A stretch of 64,000 bases of DNA from Candidatus Latescibacterota bacterium (GTDB taxonomy: Bacteria; Latescibacterota; UBA2968; UBA8231), in the NCBI GenBank assembly GCA_965203355.1, contig OZ241889.1, positions 960,001 through 1,024,000 of the forward strand, written 5' to 3'. The notes under the pieces were generated by a model, which was not told the origin of the DNA, searched no databases, and saw nothing but the letters and a program-made list of their open reading frames with translations. Positions 1-14,153 of this stretch are shown in pieces; positions within the stretch are counted from its first letter, which is position 1, and each line of letters begins with the position of its first letter. A program made the translations under genes and the position numbers.

Positions 1-1319
1 AGTTCTAGCAACCGGCGGCGCAGGGCGAGTTGCAGGGAAAACTTCCCCTGCTGCGAACTGGTGCCTGCGACCGCTAAGACGGGCACATCGACTGGGGGCC
101 ATTGCTCCGATGAAAGGAGGGTTTGTCGTATTTCTTTGGAGGACAGGGCTGGATAGTATAACCGCAAGCCCTTGGCTTCAGCCTTTTCGTACAGATCGGC
201 GTACTGTTCGTGCGGCAGTGCCAAGAGGCTGAAGATGTGGACGCCTTGGTCTATGGCGGTTTGGACTGCTTCGCGCAATAGGTCTCTTTTGCGGATGAGA
301 CTCAGTTGGTCCATATAGCCTAAAATAAGGGTGTCGGCTCCCTGTAGGGCGGCGGCCAGACTGGGCGCAATGGACAGGCCCGCTGGCGGCAGGCCAATGG
401 CCTCGCCAGCATCTTGACCGACCAAGCCCTTGCCGACCGGATCGCCTACGCCGACGATCTCAAAGCCGAGCAGGTCGCGCCCGCGCACCAGCGAGTGCAT
501 CTCCTTGTTGTAGGGATAGAGGGCGGCTTTCTGAATGTAGGTGAACGAGCCCTCGGGACGGGGCCGAGAAGCGATTTTAGGTGCGGGGGTACGGGTGGGT
601 TCGGGAAGAGCGTGAGCGCGGAGGATTTCGCGCACCTGTGCTAGGCTCGCGCCGGGCTTGGCTTGGCGGATGAGGGCAAGCAGGCCGGTGATGTGGGGCG
701 CGGCAAAGCTGGTGCCCGCCAGCATGATCTCAGGCGGCTCCAGCCAACACACTCGCTGGAGGTCGCCCCGGGCTATGCACTCGACAGCGTCTCCTTGGCG
801 ATAGTTGTAATCGTATAGATTCTGCAATGGCCCCGCGCCCACGCCGATGACTTGGGGCAAGTGGGTTGGATAGCTCTCGCGGCCTTCTTGGTGATCGGCG
901 GCGACCATTAGAATGCCTTGATCGGCGGCTTGTTGGCAGACGCGGGCCAAAGTGTCTCGCATCGTTACCTCGGTGGTGCCCAAGCTCAGGTTGATGATGT
1001 CCATACCCTGTTCTATGGACCATTTGATGGCTGCGATTAGCAAGCGGCTATCGGCTTGAAGCGATTCGTCGAAGATACGCACACTATACAGAGCCGCTTG
1101 GGGTGCTTTGCGGCGAATGATACCGGCGCAGGCCGTGCCGTGGCCGGCGCAATCGGCGTGGGCGGCACTGTAGTGAATCACGCTGTCTCTGTCTGGCCCG
1201 ATAGTGATGGCGATACCACCAGCCACCGGGCCGATTTTGGGATGATTGGGTACGAGGCCGCTATCGACGATGGCGATCTTGACGCCGTGGCCGGTCTGGT
1301 CGGCAAAGGGAAAGCTCAT
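1..1319 (-). CDS. S8 (subtilisin-like) peptidase fused to a C-terminal DUF1611-like P-loop domain; 3' end beyond window edge
   Basis: Manual translation from ATG at 1319 (ATGA overlap with the rhodanese stop): MSFPFADQTGHGVKIAIVDSG...HGTACAGII...INLSLG...GTSFAAPHITG (D/H/S triad), then KAALYPYNKEMHSL...VLAVAGTSSQQGKFSLQLALRRRL. Open to base 1; not in ORF track. Confidence 0.9.
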   Translation of the reverse strand, partial: MSFPFADQTGHGVKIAIVDSGLVPNHPKIGPVAGGIAITIGPDRDSVIHYSAAHADCAGHGTACAGIIRRKAPQAALYSVRIFDESLQADSRLLIAAIKWSIEQGMDIINLSLGTTEVTMRDTLARVCQQAADQGILMVAADHQEGRESYPTHLPQVIGVGAGPLQNLYDYNYRQGDAVECIARGDLQRVCWLEPPEIMLAGTSFAAPHITGLLALIRQAKPGASLAQVREILRAHALPEPTRTPAPKIASRPRPEGSFTYIQKAALYPYNKEMHSLVRGRDLLGFEIVGVGDPVGKGLVGQDAGEAIGLPPAGLSIAPSLAAALQGADTLILGYMDQLSLIRKRDLLREAVQTAIDQGVHIFSLLALPHEQYADLYEKAEAKGLRLYYPALSSKEIRQTLLSSEQWPPVDVPVLAVAGTSSQQGKFSLQLALRRRLLE

Positions 1320-1816
1320 GGGTTTGTCTCCGCATCTATGGCGATCGGGAATCCGGCTGCCTGCCAAGCCGGCCAACCGCCCGTCAGAACATAGCCGTCA
1401 TCGCGAATCGACTCTTTGACCAGCCGTTTGGCGAGCGCGTAGCTACTCCGGCAACCGCCTCCTGAGCAGTAGGTGATGACTTGGACATTAGCCGGATAAG
1501 CCGCTAACATCTGACGCAGGCTATTTGTGGAAGCATGGGAAGGAACACGTAAAGCACCGGGGATGTGACCGGCCTCATAAGAGTGTGCTGAGCGTGCGTC
1601 CACAAACACGGCGTCGCCGCGGTCGAAAGCCTGTTTGGCCTCGGTCGCAGAGAGCCGGTGAATGCCCTGCATTGCGGAGGAACTAAGCGTTGTATTGGCC
1701 TCTAGGACATCCAACGACAGAGCGGGCTGCACGGTATAGAACCAGATGGCGTACACGCCGCCGGCCAGTACGGCCAGCGAGAGGATTAGACCCATTCTGA
1801 TCAGAAGGCGACTCAT
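1316..1816 (-). CDS. Membrane-anchored rhodanese-like domain protein
   Basis: N-terminal TM helix, VFVDAR...YEAGHIPGA, active-site loop YCSGGGC, LTGGWPAW. Confidence 0.9.
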   Translation of the reverse strand: MSRLLIRMGLILSLAVLAGGVYAIWFYTVQPALSLDVLEANTTLSSSAMQGIHRLSATEAKQAFDRGDAVFVDARSAHSYEAGHIPGALRVPSHASTNSLRQMLAAYPANVQVITYCSGGGCRSSYALAKRLVKESIRDDGYVLTGGWPAWQAAGFPIAIDAETNP

Positions 1817-1827
1817 GCGATTCGCTC

Positions 1828-3561
1828 CTAGGCAGCCTCTTGTTGATGGTGAACAAACTGTGCGTAATAGCCCGACCTTTGGCGCAGCACGCCCGGCGGC
1901 CCCTGCTCGACTACGTGCCCGTTAGACAAGCAGATCACTTCATCTACGCCTTGTACCGCACTGAGTCGGTGGCTGATTAAGAGAATCGTTTTGTCGTGGC
2001 ATAGGTGCTGGATATGCTGAAAGAGGACTTCTTCGCTTTCAGCGTCGAGTGCGGCGGTGGCTTCGTCCAAAATCATCAGGTCCACCGGCTGCAACAGGGT
2101 ACGGGCTAGGGCGATGCGCTGCTTTTGGCCACCGGAGAGTTGTACGCCCTGTTCGCCGATTTTCGTCTGCCGGTCCAAGCCATCCAGTCCTACTTGATTG
2201 ATCACATTTTCGACTCTGGTCGGTTCGCACTTGAAGTTGCCGTAGTGAATATTGTCCCAGACCGTGTCGTTAAATAGGTGGACTTGTTGGCTGACGAAAC
2301 CAATGTGTGCTCTCAGTTCACGTAGGCTGATCTTTTCAAGTGGTGTACCATCTATAAGGATGCGGCCTTGATCGGGCTGATAGAACCCGCACAACAGATT
2401 CGCCAGCGTCGTCTTGCCGCTGCCACTCATGCCAACTAAGGCGTAACTCTTGCCCTTGACGAGCTTCAGGTTCACGCCTTGTAAGACAGGTTGGTCGTCG
2501 AAGCGGAAGTGGATGTCTTGCAATTCAATGGCGCGTTGATAGACGAAGGGTTTGCGCCCGGTGTGAATCGCCTCTTGAGTGGGCAACTGCATGAATTCCA
2601 GCACTCGGCGCATGGAGACTAAGCCGCGCACTAAGTCCATGTACAGATTGTGCAGTCCGCTCACCGGGCCAAACAGACGCGAGGTGTACTGTATAAAGGC
2701 AATGAGCGTTCCGATTGTCATGGCGCCCTGCATTACTTGATAGCCGCCCCAGCCCATGATGAACGCAGGCGTTAGAGCCACTAACCCCGCCGAGATGTTG
2801 TGCATAGACGAGGAGTATAGCACGTTGCGCATGGAGAACGAGATCAAGTCGTTGAGGGCCGATCTAAAGAGATACTTCTCGTGGCCATCGCTGTTGGAGA
2901 GTTGAATCAGCGGGATGTGGCTAAACCGCTCGATGGAATAGCTGGAGAGTTTGGCACTTTGTTGCTGAATGGATTCGACGACCTTTCTGATTTTAGGCTG
3001 AAAGTGGAGTAGGTTGGCCACAAACAGGGGGAGGACCAACACAGAGAGCAGAAACAAGGTGACGTCTAGCCAGCACAAGATCGCCACGAGGCCGATTAAG
3101 GTTAGTACACTATGTAGGAAACTCAGGGCACTTGCCGTCAGCACCGATTGGATTACGCCCACGTCGCTGTTGAGGCGAAAGACGATGTCGCCGACGGTCT
3201 GTCGATTGTGGAAGCTGAGCGGCAAGCGAATGAGGTGTTGGAATAACTCGACGCGGATGTTGCGGACGATGCGTCTGCCGGCCCAAGCATACAGATAATC
3301 AGAAGTGAAGGATAGGATCAAGTGGGTGATGGTGATGCCGATCAAGATGGCGAGGGCAACCAACAGCGGTTGGAGCTGTTTGGCTGGTACAATCTTATCA
3401 ATGATGATTTTTAAGATGTAAGGGGGTGCGAGTGAGCCGATTGTGATGCACAATACGCAGAATAGTACCACAATCCCCTGAAACCAGTACGGAGTTAGAA
3501 AGGGTAGAAAGAAGCCGATGGCGGAACGGGCTGTTTTGGGCGCAGACATGAGAAACCTCAA
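1828..3561 (-). CDS. ABC exporter, fused permease/ATPase (no C39 peptidase domain)
   Basis: TM domain plus Walker A GMSGSGKT, signature LSGGQKQR, Walker B MILDEAT. Confidence 0.95.
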   Translation of the reverse strand: MRFLMSAPKTARSAIGFFLPFLTPYWFQGIVVLFCVLCITIGSLAPPYILKIIIDKIVPAKQLQPLLVALAILIGITITHLILSFTSDYLYAWAGRRIVRNIRVELFQHLIRLPLSFHNRQTVGDIVFRLNSDVGVIQSVLTASALSFLHSVLTLIGLVAILCWLDVTLFLLSVLVLPLFVANLLHFQPKIRKVVESIQQQSAKLSSYSIERFSHIPLIQLSNSDGHEKYLFRSALNDLISFSMRNVLYSSSMHNISAGLVALTPAFIMGWGGYQVMQGAMTIGTLIAFIQYTSRLFGPVSGLHNLYMDLVRGLVSMRRVLEFMQLPTQEAIHTGRKPFVYQRAIELQDIHFRFDDQPVLQGVNLKLVKGKSYALVGMSGSGKTTLANLLCGFYQPDQGRILIDGTPLEKISLRELRAHIGFVSQQVHLFNDTVWDNIHYGNFKCEPTRVENVINQVGLDGLDRQTKIGEQGVQLSGGQKQRIALARTLLQPVDLMILDEATAALDAESEEVLFQHIQHLCHDKTILLISHRLSAVQGVDEVICLSNGHVVEQGPPGVLRQRSGYYAQFVHHQQEAA

Positions 3562-4250
3562 ATATCGGTCAAAATGTGGTTGCCGTTTATGATTTCTAGT
3601 AGAGACACGCCCTCCAGTTTGCTCAGCGGCGAGTCAGTGAAGCTAGCGGTTTTAACGTTGCGTGCTGGTAGGTGGGTAGAGACGAGTTTCCAGAAGAAGA
3701 GTTTGGTGAATTGTTCTCTGCCTGCTAATGGGTAGTGGTATTGGATAATGGTTTGGCGTTCGTCGATGAGAAAGATCGCCGGCGTCTGCTCAAAGAAATC
3801 TGCATACTTTTTTTGATCGTTCACTCGCATAGTTCCCAAGTGGTATTTGAGCTTGAATGCTCGTGCAAATTGAGCGGCAGCCGATGGCATAGAGGACAGG
3901 GCGTATATGGGTAACTGGTCGGGGTCTTCTATATGGTCATACACATGTTGTAGGGTCTCTAACACCAGCTCTAAGCATGGCTGACAGGAGGTGGGATCGA
4001 AGAGTAATACTAAGCCACCTTGAGTTTTGGCGAAGTCAGTGTGAGCGGTCTCGCCATCGACTTGGAAGGAAATCACGGGGAAAGACTGACCGATCCAGCG
4101 GTCGGATTTGAAGATGTTGATTACATAATCGCGGTAGTTTTGCACATCCACGACATAGGTCTTACTGAACCAAGCTACAACGACGGTCAAAGCGACGAGT
4201 TGTAAGAGGTTCGTAGCAGCCAATAGCTTTATTAAGGTCCTTTGTCTCAT
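3558..4250 (-). CDS. Membrane-anchored thioredoxin-fold/redoxin protein
   Basis: N-terminal TM helix, LVLLFDPTSCQPC (CxxC), TPAIFLID cis-Pro-like motif. Confidence 0.7.
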   Translation of the reverse strand: MRQRTLIKLLAATNLLQLVALTVVVAWFSKTYVVDVQNYRDYVINIFKSDRWIGQSFPVISFQVDGETAHTDFAKTQGGLVLLFDPTSCQPCLELVLETLQHVYDHIEDPDQLPIYALSSMPSAAAQFARAFKLKYHLGTMRVNDQKKYADFFEQTPAIFLIDERQTIIQYHYPLAGREQFTKLFFWKLVSTHLPARNVKTASFTDSPLSKLEGVSLLEIINGNHILTDI

Positions 4251-4314
4251 GGTCTCTGTCCCCTATTGTCAAATGGCATCAACGGATAGGTAATGTGTCC
4301 AGTACGCATGTGAT

Positions 4315-5529
4315 CTAATGAGGTTGAAAGACAAGTTCGTGGATCTCCACGGTGCCATTGGAGTCCTCTTCTCTTCCCGGTAGAGGCGATTGATAGGAGT
4401 ATAGACAACCGTCCCAATGCGTAAGGTCGTTTCCAATAAAAGATTGCATAGCCTCTTCAAAAGCATAGGCTTTGATCCGGTTTGGTGTCTTTAGGTCATA
4501 GACGATTCCCTCCCATTTAATCGCGCCTCCGGCTAGAAAGTCAGAGATAGAGGAGGGATGCATGTAGGCAACAAGAATGTACTGGTCCTGCACGAGCACT
4601 ATAGATTGCACTTCACTCATTTTACGGTCCAATTGGCTTATTTCCTCGGTGGTTTTATCCTCAAAGCTGTAGTAGCGCTCCGGCAAGGGACGATACTTCT
4701 CTAGTTGATAGCCGAACTGACGTATCAGCCGACCTGTGTCCGGATCGATTGCTGTGACTTTGTAGTCATTTCTTTTTATATAGTACAACTGATGTCGAGT
4801 CGGACTATAGGCTAAAGAACCGCTGGCCATGAAAGATGGTTGGCCAGTGAACAATGGAATGCGATAAATAGGTTCGTATTTTGCCGAGGTTGCCGGTTCG
4901 AACCGCTGCAATTCTACGATATGGCCACTATCGCTAGTTGAACGGGTCACTCTCGTCAAGTACACTGCGCCGTCTCGTCCAGTGACAATCCGAGCCGCCG
5001 ACGACGTACTAAAACGGGGAGACCGGTCTAAGAACTGCCCCTGCCGATCATAGCGGTGTAAGTATCCTGCCGATCTATCGAGAATGTAAAGATGGCCTTG
5101 GGGGGTTATGGCCATATTGTTAGGGGTACCATATTCTCCCGGTCCCATTCCTCGCTTTCCAATGGATCGGATATACTGGCCGTCCGAGATGCTGAATTCA
5201 AAGGCTTGGTCAACGATAAAGTCCGAGAGTAACAGAGTGCCCTCTGGGGAGAATCCCATCCAGTGCACACCGCTGATGGCGGGGGTATCCTCGTCATAAG
5301 CCAATTCGACTTTCCCTTTCAAGACCAGGTCGACCTGGCCGACATACTCGACCGGCACTTGGGGGATGGTCGACTCGTCAGATGCTCCTGAGCTATCATC
5401 TGCGGACCATGCGACACTTTCCTTGATGTTGTCCCATAGCCCGGCGTCGGCTGATTGAACCGGGAAGGCGAGGACGCTGGCGACGAACAGGAGGCGGCTA
5501 TTGAGCAGGATGGAGTGTGCGGTTTTCAT
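4315..5529 (-). CDS. Secreted 6-bladed beta-propeller (NHL/DUF5128-like) protein, copy B
   Basis: RBS AAGGAG before ATG at 5529; signal peptide ending ADA|GLW; IGKRGMGPGEY motif; paralog of 6008-7264. Confidence 0.85.
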   Translation of the reverse strand: MKTAHSILLNSRLLFVASVLAFPVQSADAGLWDNIKESVAWSADDSSGASDESTIPQVPVEYVGQVDLVLKGKVELAYDEDTPAISGVHWMGFSPEGTLLLSDFIVDQAFEFSISDGQYIRSIGKRGMGPGEYGTPNNMAITPQGHLYILDRSAGYLHRYDRQGQFLDRSPRFSTSSAARIVTGRDGAVYLTRVTRSTSDSGHIVELQRFEPATSAKYEPIYRIPLFTGQPSFMASGSLAYSPTRHQLYYIKRNDYKVTAIDPDTGRLIRQFGYQLEKYRPLPERYYSFEDKTTEEISQLDRKMSEVQSIVLVQDQYILVAYMHPSSISDFLAGGAIKWEGIVYDLKTPNRIKAYAFEEAMQSFIGNDLTHWDGCLYSYQSPLPGREEDSNGTVEIHELVFQPH

Positions 5530-5620
5530 AAGGCGGTTCTCCTTGACCAACAGTTTCAACGAAGACTTGTACCTTGTTGGGCGTCAGTGAATTGTATGCG
5601 ATTTCGTCAACCACGGTTGC

Positions 5621-5656
5621 AGTACTCCGACCCCGGTTAGTTGGGGCCGGAGTACT
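5621..5656 (-). terminator. Stem-loop downstream of precursor B (attenuator or mRNA stabiliser)
   Basis: mRNA AGUACUCCGGCCCC-8 nt loop-GGGGUCGGAGUACU, 14-bp stem with one G-U pair; no U-tract. Confidence 0.7.
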
Positions 5657-5688
5657 TAGGACCGGGGTATGGGTTCTGGCGTAGGGCA

Positions 5689-5895
5689 TTACTTCACGAA
5701 ACAGACCTTAGTGTCGCCTTCGCCGCAGTCGTTTCCTTCTGCGTAATGGCATCCGTAATACTTGGCAAGGCAGGGGTCGCCACCGCAGGTGGTATTTTCC
5801 ACGCGGTACGGTGCCACGTCCCATTCGCCTTCCGTCACGTAGGCTTGGATGAGGAACCTACGCCTCACTGGGGTTTTCTTGCTGAGATTTGTCAT
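5689..5895 (-). CDS. Cys-rich putative RiPP/peptide precursor B (68 aa)
   Basis: RBS AAGGAG; basic leader MTNLSKK...IQAY; core with 5 Cys; paralog of 7360-7569. Confidence 0.85.
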   Translation of the reverse strand: MTNLSKKTPVRRRFLIQAYVTEGEWDVAPYRVENTTCGGDPCLAKYYGCHYAEGNDCGEGDTKVCFVK

Positions 5896-6007
5896 GGGAT
5901 TACTCCTTGGCGAAGCTCATAAATGAGCAGTGTGTGAAAAAGGAAACCAGAACCCATACCTTCTGGTGTGCAAAAGATAGATCGCCGACATGATAGGCTG
6001 GTGTGGT

Positions 6008-7264
6008 TTAATGAAGTTGAAAGACGGGTTCGTAGATCACCACGGTGCCATTGGAGTCCTTTTCCCGCCCCGGTAGCGGTGATTGATAGGAGTATAAACG
6101 ACCATTCCAATGCGTAAGTTCGTTTCCAATGAAACGATGAAAACGAACTATGCTGCTATCCGTAGGGTCAGGATATGATTGAATAGCCTCTTCAAAAGCA
6201 TAGGCTTTGATCTGGTTTGGTGTCTTTAGGTCATAGACGATTCCTTCCCATTTGAGTGCGTTATTGGCTAAATCGTCGAAGACGGAGGGATGTAGGTAGG
6301 TAACGAAAATGTACTGGTCCTGCACGAGCACCATAGATAGCACAGAACTCATTTCACGGTCCAATTCGCTTATTTCCTCAGTGGTTTTAACCTCAAAGTT
6401 GTAGTAGCGCTCTGGTAAGGGACGATACTTCTCTAGTTGATAGCCGAACTGATGTATCAGGCGACCTGTCTCTGGGTCGATTACTGTGACTTTGTAATCA
6501 TTTGTTCCCATGTAATACAACTGATGTCGCGTCGGGCTGTAGGCTAAACGGGTGTAACCGGACATTTTTTGGGAGATGAAAGACGGTTGGTTAGTGGACA
6601 ATGGAGTGCGATAGATGGGTTCGTATTTTGCCGAGGTTGCCGGTTCGAGCCGCTGCAATTCTATGATATAACCACTAGGTGTCCTAACTGATCTCGCTAA
6701 GTACACTGCGCCGTCTCGTCCGGTGACAATCCGAGCCCCTTTAGAAAAGTGAGGAGACCGGTCTAAGAACTGCCCCTGCCGGTCATAGCGGTGTAAGTAT
6801 CCTAACCCTTTATCGAGAATATAAAGATAGCCTTGGGGGTCTATGGCCATATTGGTAGGGAAACCATATTCTCCCGGTCCCGGTCCGTACTTTCCAATGG
6901 AGCGGATGTACTGGCCGTCCGCGATGCTGAATTCAAAGGCTTGGCGACCGACAGCATCCGAGAGTAGCAGAGTGCCTTCTGGGGAGAATCCCATCCAACC
7001 CACATTGCCGATGCCGGGGGTATCCTCGTCATAAGCTAGCTCGACTTTCCCTTTCAAGACCAGGTCGACTTGGCCGACATACTCGACCGGCACTTGGGGG
7101 ATGGTCGGCTCGTCAGATGCTCCTGAGCTATCATCTGCGGACCATGTGACACTTTCCTTGATGTTGTCCCATAGCCCGGCGTCGGCGGGTTGAACCGGGA
7201 AGGCGAGGACGCTGGCGACGAACAGGAGGCGGCTATTGAGCAGGATGGAGTGTGCGGTTTTCAT
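6008..7264 (-). CDS. Secreted 6-bladed beta-propeller (NHL/DUF5128-like) protein, copy A
   Basis: RBS AAGGAG before ATG at 7264; signal peptide; IGKYGPGPGEY motif. Confidence 0.85.
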   Translation of the reverse strand: MKTAHSILLNSRLLFVASVLAFPVQPADAGLWDNIKESVTWSADDSSGASDEPTIPQVPVEYVGQVDLVLKGKVELAYDEDTPGIGNVGWMGFSPEGTLLLSDAVGRQAFEFSIADGQYIRSIGKYGPGPGEYGFPTNMAIDPQGYLYILDKGLGYLHRYDRQGQFLDRSPHFSKGARIVTGRDGAVYLARSVRTPSGYIIELQRLEPATSAKYEPIYRTPLSTNQPSFISQKMSGYTRLAYSPTRHQLYYMGTNDYKVTVIDPETGRLIHQFGYQLEKYRPLPERYYNFEVKTTEEISELDREMSSVLSMVLVQDQYIFVTYLHPSVFDDLANNALKWEGIVYDLKTPNQIKAYAFEEAIQSYPDPTDSSIVRFHRFIGNELTHWNGRLYSYQSPLPGREKDSNGTVVIYEPVFQLH

Positions 7265-7291
7265 AAGGCGGTTCTCCTTGACCAAAATTGC

Positions 7292-7327
7292 AGTGCTCCG
7301 ACCCCGGTTGGTTGGGGCCGGAGCACT
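7292..7327 (-). terminator. Stem-loop downstream of precursor A
   Basis: Plus strand agtgctccgacccc-ggttggtt-ggggccggagcact; compensatory change relative to 5621-5656. Confidence 0.7.
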
Positions 7328-7359
7328 TAGGACCAGGGTATGGGTTCTGGCGTAGGGAA

Positions 7360-7569
7360 TTACTTCGTGAAGTGGACCTTAATATCTCCTTCGCTGCACT
7401 CACTTTTCTCTGGGTCCCTATGGCATCCGTAGTACTTGGCAAGGCAGGGCTCGCCATCGCAGATAGCACGTGTCACGAGGAACGGATTCACGTCCCACTC
7501 GCCTTCCATCGCGTAGGCTTGGATGAAAAGCCTGCGCCTCACTGGGGTTTTCTTGCTGAGCGTTTTCAT
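7360..7569 (-). CDS. Cys-rich putative RiPP/peptide precursor A (69 aa)
   Basis: RBS AAGGAG; leader MKTLSKKTPVRRRLFIQAYA; core with 4 Cys. Confidence 0.85.
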   Translation of the reverse strand: MKTLSKKTPVRRRLFIQAYAMEGEWDVNPFLVTRAICDGEPCLAKYYGCHRDPEKSECSEGDIKVHFTK

Positions 7570-7676
7570 AGGATTACTCCTTGGCGAAGCTCATAAATGA
7601 GCGGTGTGTGAAAAAGGAAACCAGAACCCATACCTTCTGGTGCACAAAAGATGAATCGCCGACATGGTAGGCTGTG

Positions 7677-7800
7677 TACCACGTTTTGTCTCCCGCGCGA
7701 ATCTCGTTCCACAACCCAGCGTTGGCTGGCACAGCCGTGCTGCCGAGGCAAGGAAGCGGGCGGCGAGTACCATGTGAATGTTTGAGAATGTGGTTTTCAT
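7677..7800 (-). pseudogene. Frameshifted, truncated N-terminus of a third propeller-like secreted protein
   Basis: RBS AAGGAG + MKTTFSNIHMVLAA, then in a shifted frame CLGSTAVPANA|GLWNEIR, matching propeller PADA|GLWDNIK. Confidence 0.6.
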
Positions 7801-8108
7801 CAGGCTGTGCTCCTTTTGTTATTAATAAAAGTAGCGATTGTCGTGGCACTTCGGTATCGGGTGATCACCTGATTTTTGACTAATTCTTATCGGGTGATCA
7901 CCTGATTTTTTGAAAAAACGCCTGATGTGATCTTGTCTGGCGGCGAGTAACACGTGGATGTTTGAGAATATGGTTTTCATTAGACTGTGCTCCTTTTGTT
8001 ACTAATAAAAGTAGCGATTGTCGTGGTGCTTCGGTATCGGGTGATCACCTGATTTTTGACTAATTCTTATCGGGTGATCACCTGATTTTTTGAAAAAAAT
8101 GCCTGATA
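7760..8108. repeat. Two direct copies (period 180 bp) of promoter + RBS + gene start
   Basis: ~7760-7927 is nearly identical to ~7940-8108. Confidence 0.95.
7856..8086. promoter_or_regulatory. Four identical 18-bp near-palindromic operator boxes ATCGGGTGATCACCTGAT
   Basis: At 7856-7873, 7889-7906, 8036-8053 and 8069-8086; 33-bp spacing within each pair; adjacent to a LuxR-family regulator gene. Confidence 0.8.
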
Positions 8109-8288
8109 TGGGCTTGTAGCCGAGGTTTGGCGGACTTGTCTGTGCGCCTTTGGACTCCGCTCGTGCGCCAAGAGCGTAGGCATAGCTAGGTGAATCTACT
8201 TAGTACAGGCTGTAAGGTACAGGGCGCAGAGAAAGAGGGAGGGCGAGGCCGTTCTGGGGACTAGTGGTGATTGGGACTGCCACGCCGC

Positions 8289-8942
8289 TTAGCGAGGCTG
8301 GTCCTCTTCGTCCATTAGTCCCTCTCTGATCGCGTACGCTGTCAGTTTGGCCACGCTGTGCAGGTCGAGCTTATTCATTATGTGCTGGCGGTGGGTGCCG
8401 ATGGTCTTTTTGCTCAGATAGAGTTCTTCGGCTATTTGCGCCGTTGTTTTTCCTTGGGCGACGCATCGCAGCACCATGTGCTCACGCGACGTCAGGGTAG
8501 AAAGTGGTTTGCTGGAGGCATCAGAATGACGCGCCTTGCTGGTGTTGATGGGATTAGTCAGTTGCGAACTCACGTACTGGCGACCAGCTTCCACCTCCCT
8601 GAGTGCTTTCACTAACTCGTTGATGAAGTTCGTTTTCAGCAGATACGCCCAGCCTCCCGCTTCGAACAGGCCATCCACAAATCGCTTATCTGCGTGTTCC
8701 GACAGCGCGACGAACTTCACCTGCGGATGCGTCGTCCGTATCTGGCGTGTTACCTCGAGGCCGCTCAGGTCGGGTAGCCCCATATCCACGATCACAAGGT
8801 CGGGGTGGTAGGAGCGGATCAAGTCAATAGCCGTGCGACCGTCGGATGCCTCGCCGACGACTTCAATATCGCTTTCTTGTTCGAGCCGTGTGTGCAGGGC
8901 TTGGCGCACCATAGTGTGGTCTTCTACCAGAAAAATCTTCAT
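8289..8942 (-). CDS. NarL/LuxR-family response regulator
   Basis: REC domain (VEDH, VIVD, YLLK) plus LuxR HTH (LTSRE...IAEELYLSKKTIGTHRQHIMNKL). Confidence 0.97.
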   Translation of the reverse strand: MKIFLVEDHTMVRQALHTRLEQESDIEVVGEASDGRTAIDLIRSYHPDLVIVDMGLPDLSGLEVTRQIRTTHPQVKFVALSEHADKRFVDGLFEAGGWAYLLKTNFINELVKALREVEAGRQYVSSQLTNPINTSKARHSDASSKPLSTLTSREHMVLRCVAQGKTTAQIAEELYLSKKTIGTHRQHIMNKLDLHSVAKLTAYAIREGLMDEEDQPR

Positions 8943-10012
8943 GGGGAATGGCCCTCCTCTTCAGCTAAAGAACGCGGAAGCACTAGTAGGCAACGCGTAC
9001 CTTTACCGGGCGTTGATTGGATGGTCAAATAGCCACCGATATGGAGCAGATGCTCTTGAATGCTGAACAGACCGAAGTGGCTGGCTCGGTCCATCTGCTC
9101 TAGACGCACTGTATCAAAGCCCTTACCCTCGTCTTCTATCACCACCTGCAACTGGGCTACATCTCGCCGCAAGGAGACGGTGGCTTGGTCTGTGTTGGCG
9201 TGCCGTGAGACATTGATCAGCAACTCGCGAATGGACCTGTACACTAAGCCGCGTATGTCGTGGTTGTGTATCTCCCACTTGTCCTCGGCTTCCACGCGCA
9301 CGGTCAATCCATACTGGGAATGGAGGCGGTCGCCGAGGGCCTCTAAGCCTGGTACGAACCCTATGCCGTAGAGCACGGGTGAACTGCTGTCGGATGTCAT
9401 GGATCGGATGTGATGAGCCATTTCGTCCATGTTCTTCTCCAATGTATCGATCAAGGCTTCTCGTTCGGGGTCGTCGGAATGCCGCAGTGAATTGATCTCA
9501 ACCTTCGACAGCACCAATAGCTGCCCGATGGAATCGTGCAGATCGGCCCCAAGGCGCACCCGCTCGCGCTCTCTGTCAATTAAGAGTCTGGTCGCCAGTG
9601 CCTGCAACTTCTGGATGTGTCTTTCCATGCGCTTGTGCTTGCTGATTTTGCGGATGCTACCTTGATAACCTATGAGGGTGCCGTTTGCGGCTCGCCGAAC
9701 CGAGACCGTTAGGAACGCATCGAATTGGTGCCCGTTACCCGTTGTAAAAGCCGCTGTAAAGTCGCACACAACCTCTGCTTGCTCAATCTGTTCCTGAAAC
9801 CGCTTGTAATCATCTAAACGGGTGTAGAGGCGGCGGATGTTGGAGCCGATCAGGTCGGCGCGTTCGTGGGCAAATAGGGTACTGGCGGCAGGATTGGCAT
9901 CGACGATGGTCCCATCTCGCGCAGCGATGAAGAAGGCATCTGGCGACGCTTCAAACAGGTCGCGATAGAGTTTTGGGTCTCGCCTCAACTTTCTTGGCTC
10001 AGGCTTGCACAT
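8939..10012 (-). CDS. Soluble PAS-domain HisKA_3 sensor histidine kinase
   Basis: ATG at 10012 after GAGGAG; PAS domain, ERERVRLGADLHDSIGQ H-box, ELLINVSRHA, DEGKGFD; no TM segment. Confidence 0.93.
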   Translation of the reverse strand: MCKPEPRKLRRDPKLYRDLFEASPDAFFIAARDGTIVDANPAASTLFAHERADLIGSNIRRLYTRLDDYKRFQEQIEQAEVVCDFTAAFTTGNGHQFDAFLTVSVRRAANGTLIGYQGSIRKISKHKRMERHIQKLQALATRLLIDRERERVRLGADLHDSIGQLLVLSKVEINSLRHSDDPEREALIDTLEKNMDEMAHHIRSMTSDSSSPVLYGIGFVPGLEALGDRLHSQYGLTVRVEAEDKWEIHNHDIRGLVYRSIRELLINVSRHANTDQATVSLRRDVAQLQVVIEDEGKGFDTVRLEQMDRASHFGLFSIQEHLLHIGGYLTIQSTPGKGTRCLLVLPRSLAEEEGHSP

Positions 10013-10055: not shown

Positions 10056-10682
10056 CTATGTTGGTGTCTCTCGCCGCGCCAACTTTTGCCATGCCGTTCG
10101 CGCCGCTCGATAGCTTGCCTGCGTGTCCACATCCACAAAGATGCCCTCGTCCTCAACGGGCACTTCGACGACGCTGGCCGCGTTTTTTGCCAAGACCGGC
10201 CGCGCGCCCCGATCGCCCGTCAACGCGAGTAAAGCATCTCGATGGGCCCGGCCGATCGCTACGGGATGGCCGCGCTGCCCAGCGCACACTGGCACGGCGA
10301 TCGCCGCTCTACTTTTTAACGCCTCGGCGACCTTTAGCATTGTCGTACCCGCTATCTGCGGCATGTCTCCTAGGGCCAAGAAGTAGCCTTGCTCGCCGAT
10401 GGCCGCTTCCACGCCCACTCGGATAGAAGAGGCCATCCCGGCGGCAAAATCGGGGTTGTGTACCAACCGCACGGGATAGCGGCGCAACCTTTCCTCTACC
10501 GCTACCCGCTGATGCCCTGTCACCACGACCACCTCCCCCAAACCCACCTCGCAAACCCGCTCCACCACAGCTTGGAGGACGCACTGCTCCTGCCAAGGCA
10601 GCAGCAACTTGTTGGCCTTTTTCATCCTAGCGGAACGCCCCGCCGCCAATACGATCCCGCTAAGGTCTGCGAGTCTGATCAT
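10056..10682 (-). CDS. mocA: Molybdenum cofactor cytidylyltransferase-like nucleotidyltransferase
   Basis: IVLAAGRSARM...NKLLL, LGDMP, GHPV, GDRGAR, DVDT; divergent from cox operon. Confidence 0.85.
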   Translation of the reverse strand: MIRLADLSGIVLAAGRSARMKKANKLLLPWQEQCVLQAVVERVCEVGLGEVVVVTGHQRVAVEERLRRYPVRLVHNPDFAAGMASSIRVGVEAAIGEQGYFLALGDMPQIAGTTMLKVAEALKSRAAIAVPVCAGQRGHPVAIGRAHRDALLALTGDRGARPVLAKNAASVVEVPVEDEGIFVDVDTQASYRAARTAWQKLARRETPT

Positions 10683-10717
10683 TCCAATCTCCTAAGTAGG
10701 CCCGCCCCTACGCGCTT

Positions 10718-10762
10718 GACCACCGACCACTGACCACTGACCACCGGCCACCGACCACTGAC
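10718..10762. repeat. Heptamer tandem repeat (GACCACY)x6
   Basis: gaccacc gaccact gaccact gaccacc ggccacc gaccact gac. Confidence 0.9.
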
Positions 10763-10847
10763 ATCCCGACGCGATTGACAAGAACGGGCAAAATTTTGTA
10801 ATATCCACCTTACATCCGCTTCTGGCCCTTAACAATAGCATCGGCCC

Positions 10848-11297
10848 ATGCAGCTTACAGGCTCTCATACTTTTCGCGCTCCAAGGCAGATCCTGTGGGA
10901 CTTGCTCAACGATCCCGAGGTGTTGGCGCGCATCACCCCAGGCGTCGATACCTTGGAGCAAACCGGCCCCGGCCAGTACCAAGCCGTATTGCACATCAAA
11001 ATGGGGCCGATCAACAGCACCTTCAACGGGGTGCTGCAAGTCGTCGATAGCAAGGAGCCGGAAAGCTATCGCTTGCTCATTGATGTCAACGGCAAGATCG
11101 GCCGCATTGCAGCCGAGGGTCAGGTCCGGCTTTCCGCCCAAGACCACCAGACGACCACAGTGGAACTCGAGGGCGGATCGCAGTTGACGGGCCGGTTGGC
11201 CAGCATGGGGCAGCGCCTGCTCTCGGGCGTGGCGCGGATGTTCACCAACCAGTTTTTCAAGGCACTGGAGCGCGAGATCCCTAATTCAACTAGATAG
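10848..11297 (+). CDS. coxG: CoxG/SRPBCC family protein
   Basis: APRQILWDLLNDPEVLARITPG, G.LAS.GQRL; first gene of cox cluster. Confidence 0.88.
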   Translation: MQLTGSHTFRAPRQILWDLLNDPEVLARITPGVDTLEQTGPGQYQAVLHIKMGPINSTFNGVLQVVDSKEPESYRLLIDVNGKIGRIAAEGQVRLSAQDHQTTTVELEGGSQLTGRLASMGQRLLSGVARMFTNQFFKALEREIPNSTR

Positions 11298-11306
11298 GAG
11301 GCGACT

Positions 11307-11771
11307 ATGGCAGTAGCGATTGAAGTCACTGTCAACGGCCAGACTCACAAGCACGAGGTGGAGCCGCGCCAGATGCTCGTCAGCTATTTGCGCGAGGAGT
11401 TGGGCCTGACGGGCACTCACGTCGGCTGCGACACCAGCAACTGCGGGGCCTGTACCGCTATCGTCAATGGCCAAGCCGTCAAGGTCTGCACCATGCTCGC
11501 GGCGCAAGCCGACGGCGCGGAGATAACGACCATTGAAGGACTTGCAGACAACGGCACACTGCATCCGTTACAGGTCGCCTTCCGCGAGGCCCACGGCTTG
11601 CAGTGCGGCTTTTGCACGCCTGGCATGATCATGGCCGCTTGGCAGTTGCTCGAGCGCAACGCAACGCCCAGCCCCGCCGAGATCCGCCACGCGCTCGAAG
11701 GCAACTTTTGCCGCTGCACGGGCTACGACAACATCATCAAGGCGGTCCAACGCGCCGCCGAGAGCGCCTAG
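11307..11771 (+). CDS. coxS: Molybdenum hydroxylase 2Fe-2S small subunit
   Basis: GCDTSNCGACT, QCGFCTPG, CRCTGY. Confidence 0.95.
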   Translation: MAVAIEVTVNGQTHKHEVEPRQMLVSYLREELGLTGTHVGCDTSNCGACTAIVNGQAVKVCTMLAAQADGAEITTIEGLADNGTLHPLQVAFREAHGLQCGFCTPGMIMAAWQLLERNATPSPAEIRHALEGNFCRCTGYDNIIKAVQRAAESA

Positions 11772-11780
11772 GAGGCCGCT

Positions 11781-14153
11781 ATGGGAGTGATAGGACAATC
11801 CATCAAGCGCGTCGAAGATCAGCGCTTTATCACCGGCAAGGGCCGCTACACCGACGACATAGCCCTGCCGAACTCGACTTTTGCGGCGATCGTGCGCAGC
11901 CCACACGCCCACGCCGCGATTAAAAACGTCAATACGACGGCCGCCGCGGCCGCCGCTGGCGTGGTCGCCGTCTTTACCGGGGCCGACCTCGAAGCGGCTG
12001 GCGTCGGTGGCCTGCCCTGTGGCTGGCAGGTGGATTTCAAAAACGGCGACACCATGAAGGAGCCGGCCCATCCGGTGCTGGCCGCGACCAAGGTGCGCCA
12101 CGTCGGCGATCCGGTCGCCATCGTCTTGGCCGAAAGCCGCGAGCAAGCCGCCGATGCCGCCGAGTTGGTGGCCGTGGATTACGAGGTTTTGGACGCGGTT
12201 GTCTCTGCTACCCAAGCGACGGTCGAGGGCGCGCCCCAGTTGTTCGACGAGGTGCCCAACAACACGTCCTTTGACTGGGCGCTCGGCGACCAAGCGGCAA
12301 CGGACGCCGCCTTGGCCCGCGCCGCGCACGTCACCACGTTGGAGTTCGACAACCAACGGCTCATCCCCAATGCGATTGAGCCGCGCTGCGCCATTGGCGA
12401 TTACGATGGCGCACGCGACCACTACACGCTCTACACCTCGTCGCAGAACCCCCACGTCATTCGCCTGCTGATGACGGCGTTTGTCTTGGGGCTGCCCGAG
12501 CACAAGGTGCGGGTGGTGTCGCCGGATGTGGGTGGCGGCTTTGGCTCCAAAATTTTTCACTATGCCGAAGAAGTCCTCGTCACGTGGTGCTCGCGCCAGC
12601 TTGGCCGTCCGGTCAAGTGGACCGCCAGCCGCAGCGAGGCGTTCCTCACCGACGCCCACGGCCGCGATCATCACACCAAGGTCGATCTCGGGCTCGACGC
12701 CGATGGGAATTTCGTCGGTCTGCGGGTCAAGACGGTTGCCAACCTCGGCGCGTACCTATCGACTTTCGCGCCCTGTGTGCCCACGTATCTCTACGGTACG
12801 CTCTTACAGGGGCTATACACGACCCCGGCGGTCCACGTTGATGTCACGGGCGTCTTTACCAACACCACGCCAGTTGACGCGCTGCGCGGCGCGGGTCGCC
12901 CCGAGGCCACGTACGTCCTCGAGCGCACTATTGAGCAGGCCGCCTTGGAGACCGGCCGCGACCCGGCCCAACTGCGGAGCCAAAACTTCATCCCGCCTTT
13001 TGACGGCGTCGAGCAAGAAGGCTACCAGACCCAAGTAGCCCTGCAATACGACAGCGGCAACTACCGGGCCGCGCTCGAAAAAGCCCTCGCAGCCATCGGC
13101 TACGACGAACTGCGGGCCGAGCAGGCCCAGGCCCGCGCCGCCGGCCATGGCCGTCATATCGGCATTGGCTTTTCGACCTACATCGAAGCCTGCGGCATTG
13201 CGCCGTCGGCCGTGGTTGGCGCGTTGGGGGCGCGCGCTGGCTTGTTTGAGAGCGCGGGCGTCCGGGTCCAGCCCACCGGCAAGGTCACGGTATTTACCGG
13301 CAGTCACTCGCACGGGCAGGGCCACGAGACGACCTTTGCCCAAGTGGTGGCCGACGGGTTGGGCGTGGGGATCGAAGACGTGGACATCATTCACGGCGAC
13401 ACCGAGTCCGTGCCCTTTGGCATGGGCACGTATGGCTCGCGCTCGCTGGCCGTCGGCGGCACAGCCATCGTCAAGAGCATGGACAAGATCAAGGAGAAGG
13501 GAGCCAAGATCGCCGCCCACTTGCTCGAAGCCGCCGAGGAGGACCTCGAATTCGTCGAGGGCCGTTGGACGGTCAAGGGCACCGATCAGTCGATCTCCTT
13601 TGGCGAGGTCGCGCTGGCCGCGTATGTGCCGCACAATTTTCCCGCAGGGCTGGAGCCGGGGCTGGAGTTTACCAGCTTCTACGACCCGGCCAATTTCACC
13701 TTCCCCTTTGGTGCTCATATAGCGGTCGTGGAGGTGGACGCCGAGACTGGCGTAGTCGCGGTGCGGCGCTACGTCGCTGTCGACGACGTGGGCAATATCG
13801 TCAATCCCATGATCGTCGAAGGTCAAGTTCACGGCGGCATTACGCACGGCATTGGCCAAGCCCTGTTTGAGGAGGCTGTGTACGACGACAGCGGCCAGCT
13901 CATTTCCGGCTCGTACATGGACTACGTTCTGCCGCGCGCCGACGATTTGCCTTCCTTTGAGACCGACCACACTGTCACGCCCTGCCCGCACAATCCCCTC
14001 GGCGTCAAGGGTGCTGGCGAGACCGGCACGATTGGTTCGCCGCCGGCCATTGTCAACGCCGTGATCGACGCCCTGTGGCCGTTGGGTGTGCGCGACCTTG
14101 CTATGCCGCTGACGCCGCAGAAGGTGTGGCAAGCCATCCAGCAAGTTAGCTAA
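11781..14153 (+). CDS. coxL: Form II CO dehydrogenase-like / xanthine oxidase family molybdopterin large subunit
   Basis: [36 protein letters not shown]; S-L-M gene order. Confidence 0.92.

Follow-up and report, generated by a model that had tools for sequence, protein, structure and literature searches.

The left end of a 64-kb stretch of DNA from a Candidatus Latescibacterota bacterium (contig OZ241889.1, positions 960,001 to 1,024,000; hereafter the window) carries ten genes, all on the minus strand, for a two-component system, two small peptides, two secreted propellers and four accessory proteins. On a narrow balance of probability, we regard them as belonging to a conserved gene cluster, about 20 kb long, that would make, export and handle small ribosomal peptides by a logic like that of small-subunit maturation in quinohemoprotein amine dehydrogenase (QHNDH). 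Genes were called from the table of open reading frames (ORFs) and from Pfam and NCBIfam scans of the window proteins. The order obtained, in the direction of transcription, is sensor kinase, response regulator, ORF A, propeller A, ORF B, propeller B, redoxin, ABC exporter, rhodanese and a fusion of an S8 peptidase with a DUF1611 domain, whose gene runs off the left edge of the window at base 1.

This order is the one given in a first-pass annotation made from the DNA letters alone, and two further claims of that annotation, on tight junctions and on base composition, proved correct as well. The kinase and regulator genes, and likewise the redoxin and ABC exporter genes, overlap by 4 nt, and the fusion gene, with the start that matches its full-length database protein, overlaps the rhodanese stop codon. 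Between about 2000 and 9500 the G+C content is 0.48-0.55, compared with 0.60-0.65 in the flanks, where the cox-type neighbours lie. Cassettes A and B are paralogues of each other, with small ORFs that are 65% identical and propellers that are 78% identical.

Conservation of the cluster in related genomes

A scan of one genome per species gave 504 loci encoding a relative of the S8-DUF1611 fusion, and the 80 best were kept (L001-L080). Neighbourhood counts were made with L001-L048, leaving out L049-L080, which match the S8 domain only; ORFs were clustered, representatives were scanned against family libraries and genes were counted by tblastn. The best 48 loci belong mostly to metagenome-assembled genomes of Latescibacterota and Gemmatimonadota, often with several copies per genome, and more distant members (about 30-36% identity) come from Bacteroidota, a myxobacterium and Firmicutes.

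An acyl carrier protein (ACP) is present in 33 of the 48 loci and in most of them is encoded directly downstream of the fusion; its attachment Ser is invariant in 20 of 20 sequences. A BtrH_N/DUF4872 protein was found in 10 of 48 loci, and a 344-amino-acid (aa) protein without a Pfam match, which is a remote BtrH-like relative (hhalign probability 94%, E 1.4e-7), in 16 of 48. Lower counts were obtained for a 211-aa protein (7/48), HlyD (7/48) and AcrB (8/48). The 211-aa protein matched neither Pfam nor NCBIfam, and a protein-cluster look-up gave only clusters without a name beyond 'hypothetical protein'.

The homologues of the window genes thus co-occur in other genomes, which answers the neighbourhood check that the first-pass annotation had proposed. 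The conserved order is propeller, precursor, redoxin, ABC exporter, rhodanese, S8-DUF1611 fusion, ACP, 211-aa protein, BtrH-like protein, HlyD and AcrB, and it is kept in L003, L004, L005, L009, L039, L118, L119, L123, L126, L127 and L129. In L001-L003, whose fusion proteins are 84-86% identical to that of the window, the fusion is followed by ACP, the 211-aa protein, the BtrH-like protein, HlyD and two AcrB genes; the corresponding position in the window lies to the left of base 1, and tblastn detected no ACP, 211-aa, BtrH-like, HlyD or AcrB gene within the 64 kb.

It is at this position that a radical SAM enzyme had been expected. The three closest relatives, L001-L003, have the genes just listed there instead, with no radical SAM gene within 10 kb downstream of the fusion, and a tblastn search with the L005 radical SAM protein found none in the window. 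The proposed radical SAM partner holds for some syntenic relatives only: in L005 and L123 a radical SAM/SPASM maturase is encoded upstream of the propeller. The L005 protein scored 247 bits with the SCIFF model, 228 with QhpD (cut-off 453) and 151 with TIGR04068 (cut-off 500), in each case below the cut-off. The Firmicute locus L046 has two ABC exporter genes, an ACP-like gene and, besides a 39-aa Cys-rich ORF, a radical SAM/SPASM gene.

The closest relative, L001 (4400-10100; fusion 86% identical), is a decayed copy. Its response regulator is split over two frames, half of the ABC gene is lost and there is no redoxin, rhodanese or precursor gene; the propeller is intact and is preceded by a GNAT gene. 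Separately, flagged TGA and other stop codons were considered as selenocysteine codons or signs of pseudogenes, and these readings were dropped, the codons being terminal stops only.

A common leader ahead of variable peptide cores

The predicted precursor A (7360-7569, minus strand; 69 aa) has a 19-aa leader ending in A-Y and an acidic core of about 50 aa with Trp25 and four Cys; a Shine-Dalgarno-like GGAG stands 8 nt before its ATG. Precursor B (5689-5895, minus strand; 68 aa) is its paralogue. The leader follows the pattern M-x-x-L-x-K ... V/I-x-A-Y, seen in many loci beside S8-DUF1611 genes and followed there by cores that vary strongly. The motif MKxLxKK...IxAY, read earlier from the window only, is accordingly a common property of ORFs beside such genes.

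Small ORFs on the strand of the adjacent propeller in L003, L004, L005, L009 and L039 carry the leader of the window, and a regular expression derived from them retrieved similar ORFs also from loci without any propeller. In an alignment of 26 leader-type ORFs only L4, K6, A18 and Y19 are conserved, in part by construction because the rows were chosen with that pattern, and the cores are unrelated. A hidden Markov model (HMM) of the leader was run over 20,095 six-frame segments. It gave 28 matches at E<1e-3, of which 26 were training rows, and every one of the 28 shares its strand with the S8 gene. Matches in genomes outside the training set came from L119 (E 3.6e-6), L118, L122, L129 and L128, and the leader-type ORFs of L126 and L127 were found by eye.

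For the precursors linked to propellers, conservation extends into the core. Across 22 such sequences L4, Y19, W25 and C58 are invariant, and M1, R11, A18 and C49 are nearly so. A profile built from eight of them matched 16 called proteins in a collection of 5.8 billion, none with a Pfam family or with a name beyond 'hypothetical'. A look-up of sequencing runs listed four entries in two studies, none of them recorded as RNA. Searched against NCBIfam release 20.0 at E<=0.1, the small ORFs gave no match (TIGR04066 and TIGR04068 are in that release; the presence of TIGR04065 was not confirmed).

One could suppose that the small ORFs are not products at all, but untranslated or regulatory upstream ORFs, and that the function lies with the propellers, redoxin and transporters, for instance in envelope redox or stress responses. 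Propeller arrays with a redoxin and an extracytoplasmic function (ECF) sigma factor do exist without a recognisable small ORF, and three loci described below (L120, L124 and L130) keep the propeller and the resistance-nodulation-division (RND) genes and have no precursor, ABC or S8 gene. We consider this explanation very improbable, however, given that frame, start and the Shine-Dalgarno-like GGAG are kept, that the leader is common to loci without any propeller, and that the Trp and a Cys are invariant over the 22 sequences. In addition, the ratio of nonsynonymous to synonymous substitution rates (dN/dS) of the precursors is below 1 in 6 of 6 pairs (0.40-0.75), the 16 retrieved proteins were called as genes by other pipelines, and the core of the small ORF models as a confident partner of the propeller, as described in the next section.

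Two other interpretations of the small ORFs were tried and rejected. A Tat signal was suggested by an R-R motif, but the acidic core follows directly after the 19-aa leader and no hydrophobic h-region is present. A bacteriocin with a double-glycine leader and a C39-ABC exporter did not fit either, as the exporter lacks a C39 domain and the leaders end in A-Y, not G-G. At L026, L027 and L031 (about 2800-4400), three or four tandem precursors with near-identical leaders have hydrophobic Gly/Ala-rich cores with Cys that look like class II bacteriocins; these loci have the same S8-DUF1611/ACP core and no propeller.

A secreted propeller encoded beside each peptide gene of the window

Propeller A (6008-7285, minus strand; database protein start 7264) and propeller B (4315-5559, minus strand; database protein start 5529) are secreted six-bladed NHL-like proteins of the DUF5128 family. 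The assignment to DUF5128 was checked with PF17170, which both proteins match above its threshold of 22.9 bits (44.2 and 40.6 bits, respectively). Their N-termini are signal-peptide-like in the window, and several relatives have a lipobox (both read by eye). The AlphaFold2 model of the propeller (predicted local distance difference test, pLDDT, 83.3) is six-bladed and NHL-like, with residues 1-52 disordered. Foldseek matched this model to NHL domains (E 2.7e-13), to 4raa and to the six-bladed PAL 3fvz (E 3.8e-10); its structural neighbours include two Bacteroides proteins of unknown function, and no amine dehydrogenase chain was among the matches listed. The family is small, with 54 proteins at E<=0.001, and within Latescibacterota it occurs in 25 of 167 genomes (51 matches). 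Scanning of metagenome contigs with the propeller alignment gave no relative.

Pairing of the propeller family with the S8 fusion or the redoxin was observed at 15 loci (the window, L001, L003, L004, L005, L009, L039, L118, L119, L122, L123, L126, L127, L128 and L129). A leader-type ORF lies beside the propeller in 14 of the 15, the exception being L001. The complex of propeller A (residues 53-418) with the core of precursor A (residues 20-69) was predicted with scores of 0.87, 0.88 and 0.81 in three runs, compared with 0.01 for the best control. Among solved complexes 58 of 80 attained 0.87, and among mismatched pairs 2 of 110, which is a rough calibration because own alignments were used. 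The three runs had at least 81% of contacts in common, 85-101 contacts and a partner pLDDT of at least 67, and they placed the peptide on one face of the propeller, adjoining conserved NHL loops. These models support binding of the mature peptide to its propeller.

The residues in contact with the modelled peptide are also where the propellers differ most. At the 42 contact positions, propellers A and B are identical in 16, compared with 261 of 324 positions in the rest of the protein (Fisher p 3e-8). Across the whole family, the contact positions are likewise more variable than those elsewhere in the propeller (2.50 vs. 1.33 bits). The earlier suggestion that each peptide has a propeller partner of its own is therefore now backed by synteny, by a complex model with controls and by divergence of the interface.

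The same model could be taken for an enzyme-substrate complex. The propeller would then be a periplasmic tailoring enzyme, perhaps a lyase or cyclase like PAL, that acts once on an acylated, disulfide-bonded peptide before the latter leaves through an RND pump. The PAL structure among the Foldseek matches, the position of the peptide on one face beside the conserved NHL loops, and the RND pump genes conserved downstream in relatives are all in line with such a role. We nevertheless hold it to be unlikely: no metal-binding His or Cys is conserved, neither residue being invariant across 53 propellers of the family, and the presence of one propeller per peptide, with contacts on its most variable face, suits a specific binder better.

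Propeller genes occur in other settings as well. In about eight further places we found orphan propellers, or lipoprotein arrays behind an ECF sigma factor, a redoxin and an RDD protein, and no precursor was found there. Three loci, L133, L134 and L135 (genomes G055, G057 and G051), carry three or four lipoprotein propellers in tandem, preceded by an ECF-type sigma factor, a 440-aa protein that ends in a redoxin domain and a membrane protein of the RDD family. No ORF of the leader type turned up at these three arrays, and the pairing of propeller and redoxin therefore recurs outside the peptide cluster. The idea that the arrays are islands of orphan immunity genes was dropped, as the ECF/redoxin/RDD context lends it no specific support. 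In L120, L124 and L130, HlyD and AcrB come directly after the propeller, and there are no genes for the precursor, the redoxin, the ABC exporter, the rhodanese, the S8 fusion, ACP or the BtrH-like protein, as though the central part of the cluster had dropped out.

An S8 peptidase fused to a DgcN-like domain

The gene at 3-1376 (minus strand; likely start 1319) encodes a cytoplasmic S8 peptidase fused to a DUF1611/DgcN-like domain, with the first 439-458 of 638 residues lying in the window. A full-length database protein of 638 aa, P0001, is identical to it over this part. Scores of 96.3 bits for PF00082 (threshold 21.8) and 29.2 bits for DUF1611_N (threshold 22.6), together with a precomputed PF07755 match on P0001, confirm the fusion of an S8 peptidase with a P-loop domain of DUF1611 type that had been read from the window and marked for checking. 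Relatives of P0001 number 984 at E<=0.001 among 8000 scored candidates, and 118 of the 120 listed carry both PF00082 and PF07755, the other two being short. The Asp/His/Ser triad (D19, H60, S204) and a P-loop-like G-x4-GK motif are invariant in 17 of 17 aligned members, and the S8 domain matches subtilisin BPN' with E 2.2e-21.

Among curated models, the S8 domain is most similar to QhpE, a relation that the first-pass annotation had left out of account, with 148.7 bits for the window part and 147.3 bits for P0001 at a cut-off of 165. Relatives in genomes G001 and G139 scored 144-146 bits with this model, and the control genomes gave no QhpE match above the cut-off. The leader closes with Tyr (P1), Ala (P2) and, at P4, a hydrophobic residue, and an aromatic P1 with a hydrophobic P4 suits subtilisin-type sites. 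From its sequence, the leader would probably be cut after A-Y by the S8 domain.

An alignment of 33 relatives, headed by the L003 orthologue (about 88% identical), was used to model the C-terminal domain. The model (pLDDT 88.6) matched 2g0t (1.5e-14), the DgcN structure 7xrj (3.0e-14) and 2obn (6.5e-13) in Foldseek. As P0001 reaches only 16 bits with the NCBIfam DgcN equivalog (cut-off 480), the domain belongs to the DgcN fold family and is not DgcN itself. A second S8-DUF1611 fusion, P0027, is 72% identical to that of the window and comes from a contig equal in length (4,171,184 bp) to that of P0001, so that the genome probably has at least two such systems.

Exporter, redoxin and rhodanese

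Between the propellers and the fusion lie three genes for proteins that would act on the peptide core at or beyond the inner membrane. The exporter (1828-3561, minus strand) is of half size, a transmembrane domain with a nucleotide-binding domain, and has no peptidase domain: ABC_membrane (145.5 bits) and ABC_tran (128.3 bits) are its only domains, in agreement with the first reading of it as protease-less. It stays under every NCBIfam cut-off, with an MsbA-like model as the best match (384 bits).

The redoxin (3558-4250, minus strand) is a ResA/TlpA-like thiol-disulfide oxidoreductase with an N-terminal hydrophobic anchor, read from the translation. Its match to the Pfam Redoxin/AhpC-TSA families is weak (E about 0.01); when six relatives were combined in a profile, ResA chains (E 2.2e-5) and a thioredoxin-like protein (E 1.8e-7) were matched. 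The two Cys of its CxPC motif, C89 and C92, are invariant in 6 of 6 sequences. The membrane-anchored rhodanese (1316-1816, minus strand; PF00581, 67.3 bits) has a C-x4-C motif, C117 and C122, invariant in 5 of 5 sequences, and the Arg that follows is not kept. Sister loci encode ResA-like and MauE/DoxX-like (also MauD-like) proteins instead.

Relation to known systems

The closest parallel is the biogenesis of the QHNDH gamma subunit (QhpC, QhpD, QhpE, QhpF, QhpB). According to passages in PMC7876137, the QhpC leader is cut off by QhpE while still in the cytoplasm, the ABC transporter QhpF then exports the peptide, and the small Cys/Trp subunit pairs with a propeller subunit. The cluster described here likewise combines a small leader-bearing Cys/Trp peptide, a cytoplasmic S8 peptidase, a protease-less ABC exporter that parallels QhpF, and a periplasmic propeller with which pairing is predicted. 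Unlike in QHNDH, the protease carries a fused DUF1611/DgcN-like domain and, in relatives, has ACP and BtrH-like genes after it; the partner propeller is of a six-bladed NHL-like type, and the cores, present in duplicate, are hypervariable. The ten genes include none for a radical SAM enzyme (QhpD), a flavoprotein (QhpG) or a dihaem cytochrome (QhpA).

The likeness could go further than logic. The peptide might be the permanent small subunit of a two-subunit periplasmic protein of the QHNDH or methylamine dehydrogenase (MADH) kind, perhaps with a Trp/Cys cofactor or cross-links, and the S8, ABC and redoxin proteins would then serve biogenesis only. Besides the resemblance of the S8 domain to QhpE, such a protein would account for the invariant Trp and Cys pair of the core, for the large predicted interface, for the radical SAM/SPASM genes of L005 and L123 with 228 bits on the QhpD model, and for the MauE- and MauD-like genes of sister loci. 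Yet we think it quite unlikely. The shape of the propeller, together with the lack of amine dehydrogenases among the listed structural matches and of an invariant His or Cys, speaks for a different protein, hypervariable cores would be unusual for a catalytic subunit, and every qhp model cut-off was missed. Moreover, no cytochrome, QhpG-like or MauG-like gene was seen among the annotated neighbours in the cluster or its relatives, and the window lacks a radical SAM gene.

The first-pass annotation had likened the genes to the CLI_3235-type clostridial Cys-rich peptide system (TIGR04065/TIGR04066/TIGR04068), a set of computationally defined families on which we know of no experimental work. The alignment of the C-terminal domain of P0001 with TIGR04066 spans the complete model, from position 2 to 360 of 361, with 113.1 bits for P0001 and 64.8 bits for the window part at a cut-off of 200. 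The Firmicute relatives L046-L048 (about 30% identity) also resemble that type: together with the S8-DUF1611 fusion and ABC exporters, they encode a radical SAM/SPASM protein, an ACP-like protein and a short Cys-rich precursor. A distant link through TIGR04066 and kinship of the DUF1611 fold can therefore be retained. Membership cannot, as the precursors have no NCBIfam match and a radical SAM gene is absent from the window and from the region just downstream in its closest relatives. The present cluster has, in addition, the propeller, the anchored redoxin, the rhodanese and the RND genes. With the curated cut-offs missed for both the qhp and the TIGR04066 models, the cluster is a member of neither system.

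Single parts of the cluster resemble further systems. The C-terminal domain shares the fold and the conserved P-loop-like motif with the DUF1611 protein DgcN, a D-glutamate N-acetyltransferase (7xrj; also 2g0t and 2obn), but is only about 16% identical to it, and it is fused to a protease and paired with ACP rather than free-standing. In butirosin biosynthesis, BtrI and BtrH carry out an ACP-dependent acyl transfer to an amine. In relatives of the cluster, the S8 fusion is similarly followed at once by ACP, which has the conserved Ser, and by a BtrH_N/DUF4872 protein; here, in contrast, the acceptor would be a peptide, and the ACP and BtrH-like genes are not in the window. In lantibiotic self-protection, a LanI-type lipoprotein binds the peptide and an efflux transporter assists it. 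The secreted or lipid-anchored propeller predicted to bind a cognate peptide, one per peptide, and the efflux pump of the cluster are comparable, but the two folds are unrelated, the setting is that of a diderm and an RND pump takes the place of LanFEG.

In open-access papers and preprints (main texts without supplements) we found no description of such a peptide system, of the S8-DUF1611 fusion, of a BtrH-like enzyme with a precursor peptide, or of this propeller family, in keeping with the earlier remark that the combination was not recognised as a described one.

A proposed pathway and its weak points

We lean, if not strongly, towards a leader-guided pathway of peptide maturation and export with QhpE/QhpF-like logic, ending in cognate pairs of peptide and propeller. 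The cytoplasmic PAS kinase and the NarL-type regulator would switch on the operon via four palindromic sites. Two precursors of 68 and 69 aa, each with a 19-aa leader and an acidic core of about 50 aa that contains the invariant Trp and a conserved Cys pair, would then be made. The S8 domain of the cytoplasmic fusion would take off the leader, probably after A-Y, and the DgcN-like domain would, with the ACP and BtrH-like transferase known from relatives, probably add an acyl or aminoacyl group. Carried to the periplasm by the protease-less ABC exporter, the core could have its disulfides set there by the membrane-anchored CxPC redoxin and the two-Cys rhodanese. Each peptide would be captured by its own secreted NHL-type propeller through the hypervariable face, for escort or self-protection, and the downstream RND pump of relatives may expel the peptide or guard against it. 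Of this pathway, gene content, synteny, leader and other motifs, and folds were observed, binding is supported by modelling, and the cleavage site, acylation, redox step, export route and biological role are inferred.

We put forward more tentatively, and with clearly less confidence, a wider interpretation. S8-DUF1611, ACP and the BtrH-like protein might form the core of an undescribed multi-phylum class of peptides that are ribosomally synthesized and then modified post-translationally (RiPPs), in which leader removal is coupled to carrier-dependent N-terminal acylation. The Latescibacterota/Gemmatimonadota branch of this class may have evolved hypervariable peptide-propeller pairs that act in the periplasm in the manner of toxin and immunity protein or of ligand and receptor.

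Several observations weigh against the proposed pathway. The contact residues of the propeller lie in loops, which are more variable anyway, and the comparison was with the rest of the propeller as a whole. About half of the propeller-family genes of the phylum lie outside such clusters, some as tandem arrays, so that the propeller is not strictly peptide-dependent. The leader statistics are partly circular, because regular expression and HMM were both built from like ORFs, and the dN/dS of the precursors is only moderately under 1. The ACP, BtrH-like and RND genes were seen in relatives only, and no gene of the window encodes a modification enzyme with a known chemistry. Proteins of the ResA/TlpA type usually act as reductants, so that the redox step could be an oxidation, an isomerisation or a reduction. 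Finally, the fusion remains below both curated cut-offs that come closest, with 147-149 vs. 165 bits for QhpE and 113 vs. 200 bits for TIGR04066.

If the pathway is correct, the cluster represents a large unannotated family of ribosomal peptide systems in poorly known phyla, with a new type of leader. The pairing of a protease-DgcN-like fusion with a carrier protein would be without report in the literature searched, as would a propeller partner for each peptide. It would also provide the first functional context for DUF1611 outside D-glutamate catabolism and for a branch of DUF5128 propellers. One-to-one pairs of peptide and propeller with a fast-evolving contact face would make a tractable model for the evolution of specificity in the diderm periplasm. 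Genome mining could search with the leader motif combined with the S8-DUF1611/ACP pair.

Regulatory genes and upstream elements

The sensor kinase (8939-10012, minus strand) has PAS (52 bits), HisKA_3 (29.9 bits) and HATPase_c (42 bits) domains. Its ORF is open to 10156; the start of the L001 orthologue matches 10012, which is therefore the likely start. No hydrophobic segment was seen in the translation (read by eye), and a cytoplasmic kinase without a membrane segment would sense an internal cue rather than the peptide. The adjoining response regulator (8289-8942, minus strand) is of the NarL/LuxR type (Response_reg 88.8 bits, GerE 65.4 bits). A kinase with a regulator, or a regulator alone, stands beside the cluster also in L001, L039, L118, L119 and L125-L130.

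Between the regulator and ORF A lie tandem repeats (160/180 bp) at 7759-7918 and 7939-8098, which are 94% identical in a repeat search. They contain four copies of an 18-nt palindrome, at 7856, 7889, 8036 and 8069. Its 10-nt core, GGTGATCACC, occurs 4 times in the 64 kb, always within the repeats, compared with 0.03 copies expected. In the orthologous locus L119, the core is present three times upstream of the propeller with identical 33-nt spacing. The array of operators postulated in the first-pass annotation thus corresponds to a 180-bp tandem duplication with four palindromes, which from their sequence are candidate operators to which the response regulator would bind.

A short ORF also opens in each copy of the 180-bp repeat (7591-7800 and 7822-7980, minus strand; 69 and 52 aa). 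Both have AAAGGAG followed seven bases later by ATG, and both begin with M-K-T-(T/I)-F-S-N-I-H; the upstream one reads through both palindromes of the downstream repeat copy. They may have arisen by chance through the duplication or may serve in regulation as a small ORF.

Identical hairpins with a 7-bp stem and a T-rich run are found at 7620-7641 and 5946-5967 (minus strand), about 50 nt upstream of the starts of precursors A and B, respectively. The element belongs to the duplicated cassette unit; it could serve as an attenuator or a processing site, or it may terminate the gene before it.

Next to the kinase gene, at 10056-14153, are genes for a MobA-like nucleotidyltransferase (minus strand) and, on the plus strand, for CoxG, a 2Fe-2S subunit and a CO/xanthine dehydrogenase-family molybdopterin large subunit. 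This flank, from MobA to the molybdopterin subunit, is richer in G+C than the peptide cluster.

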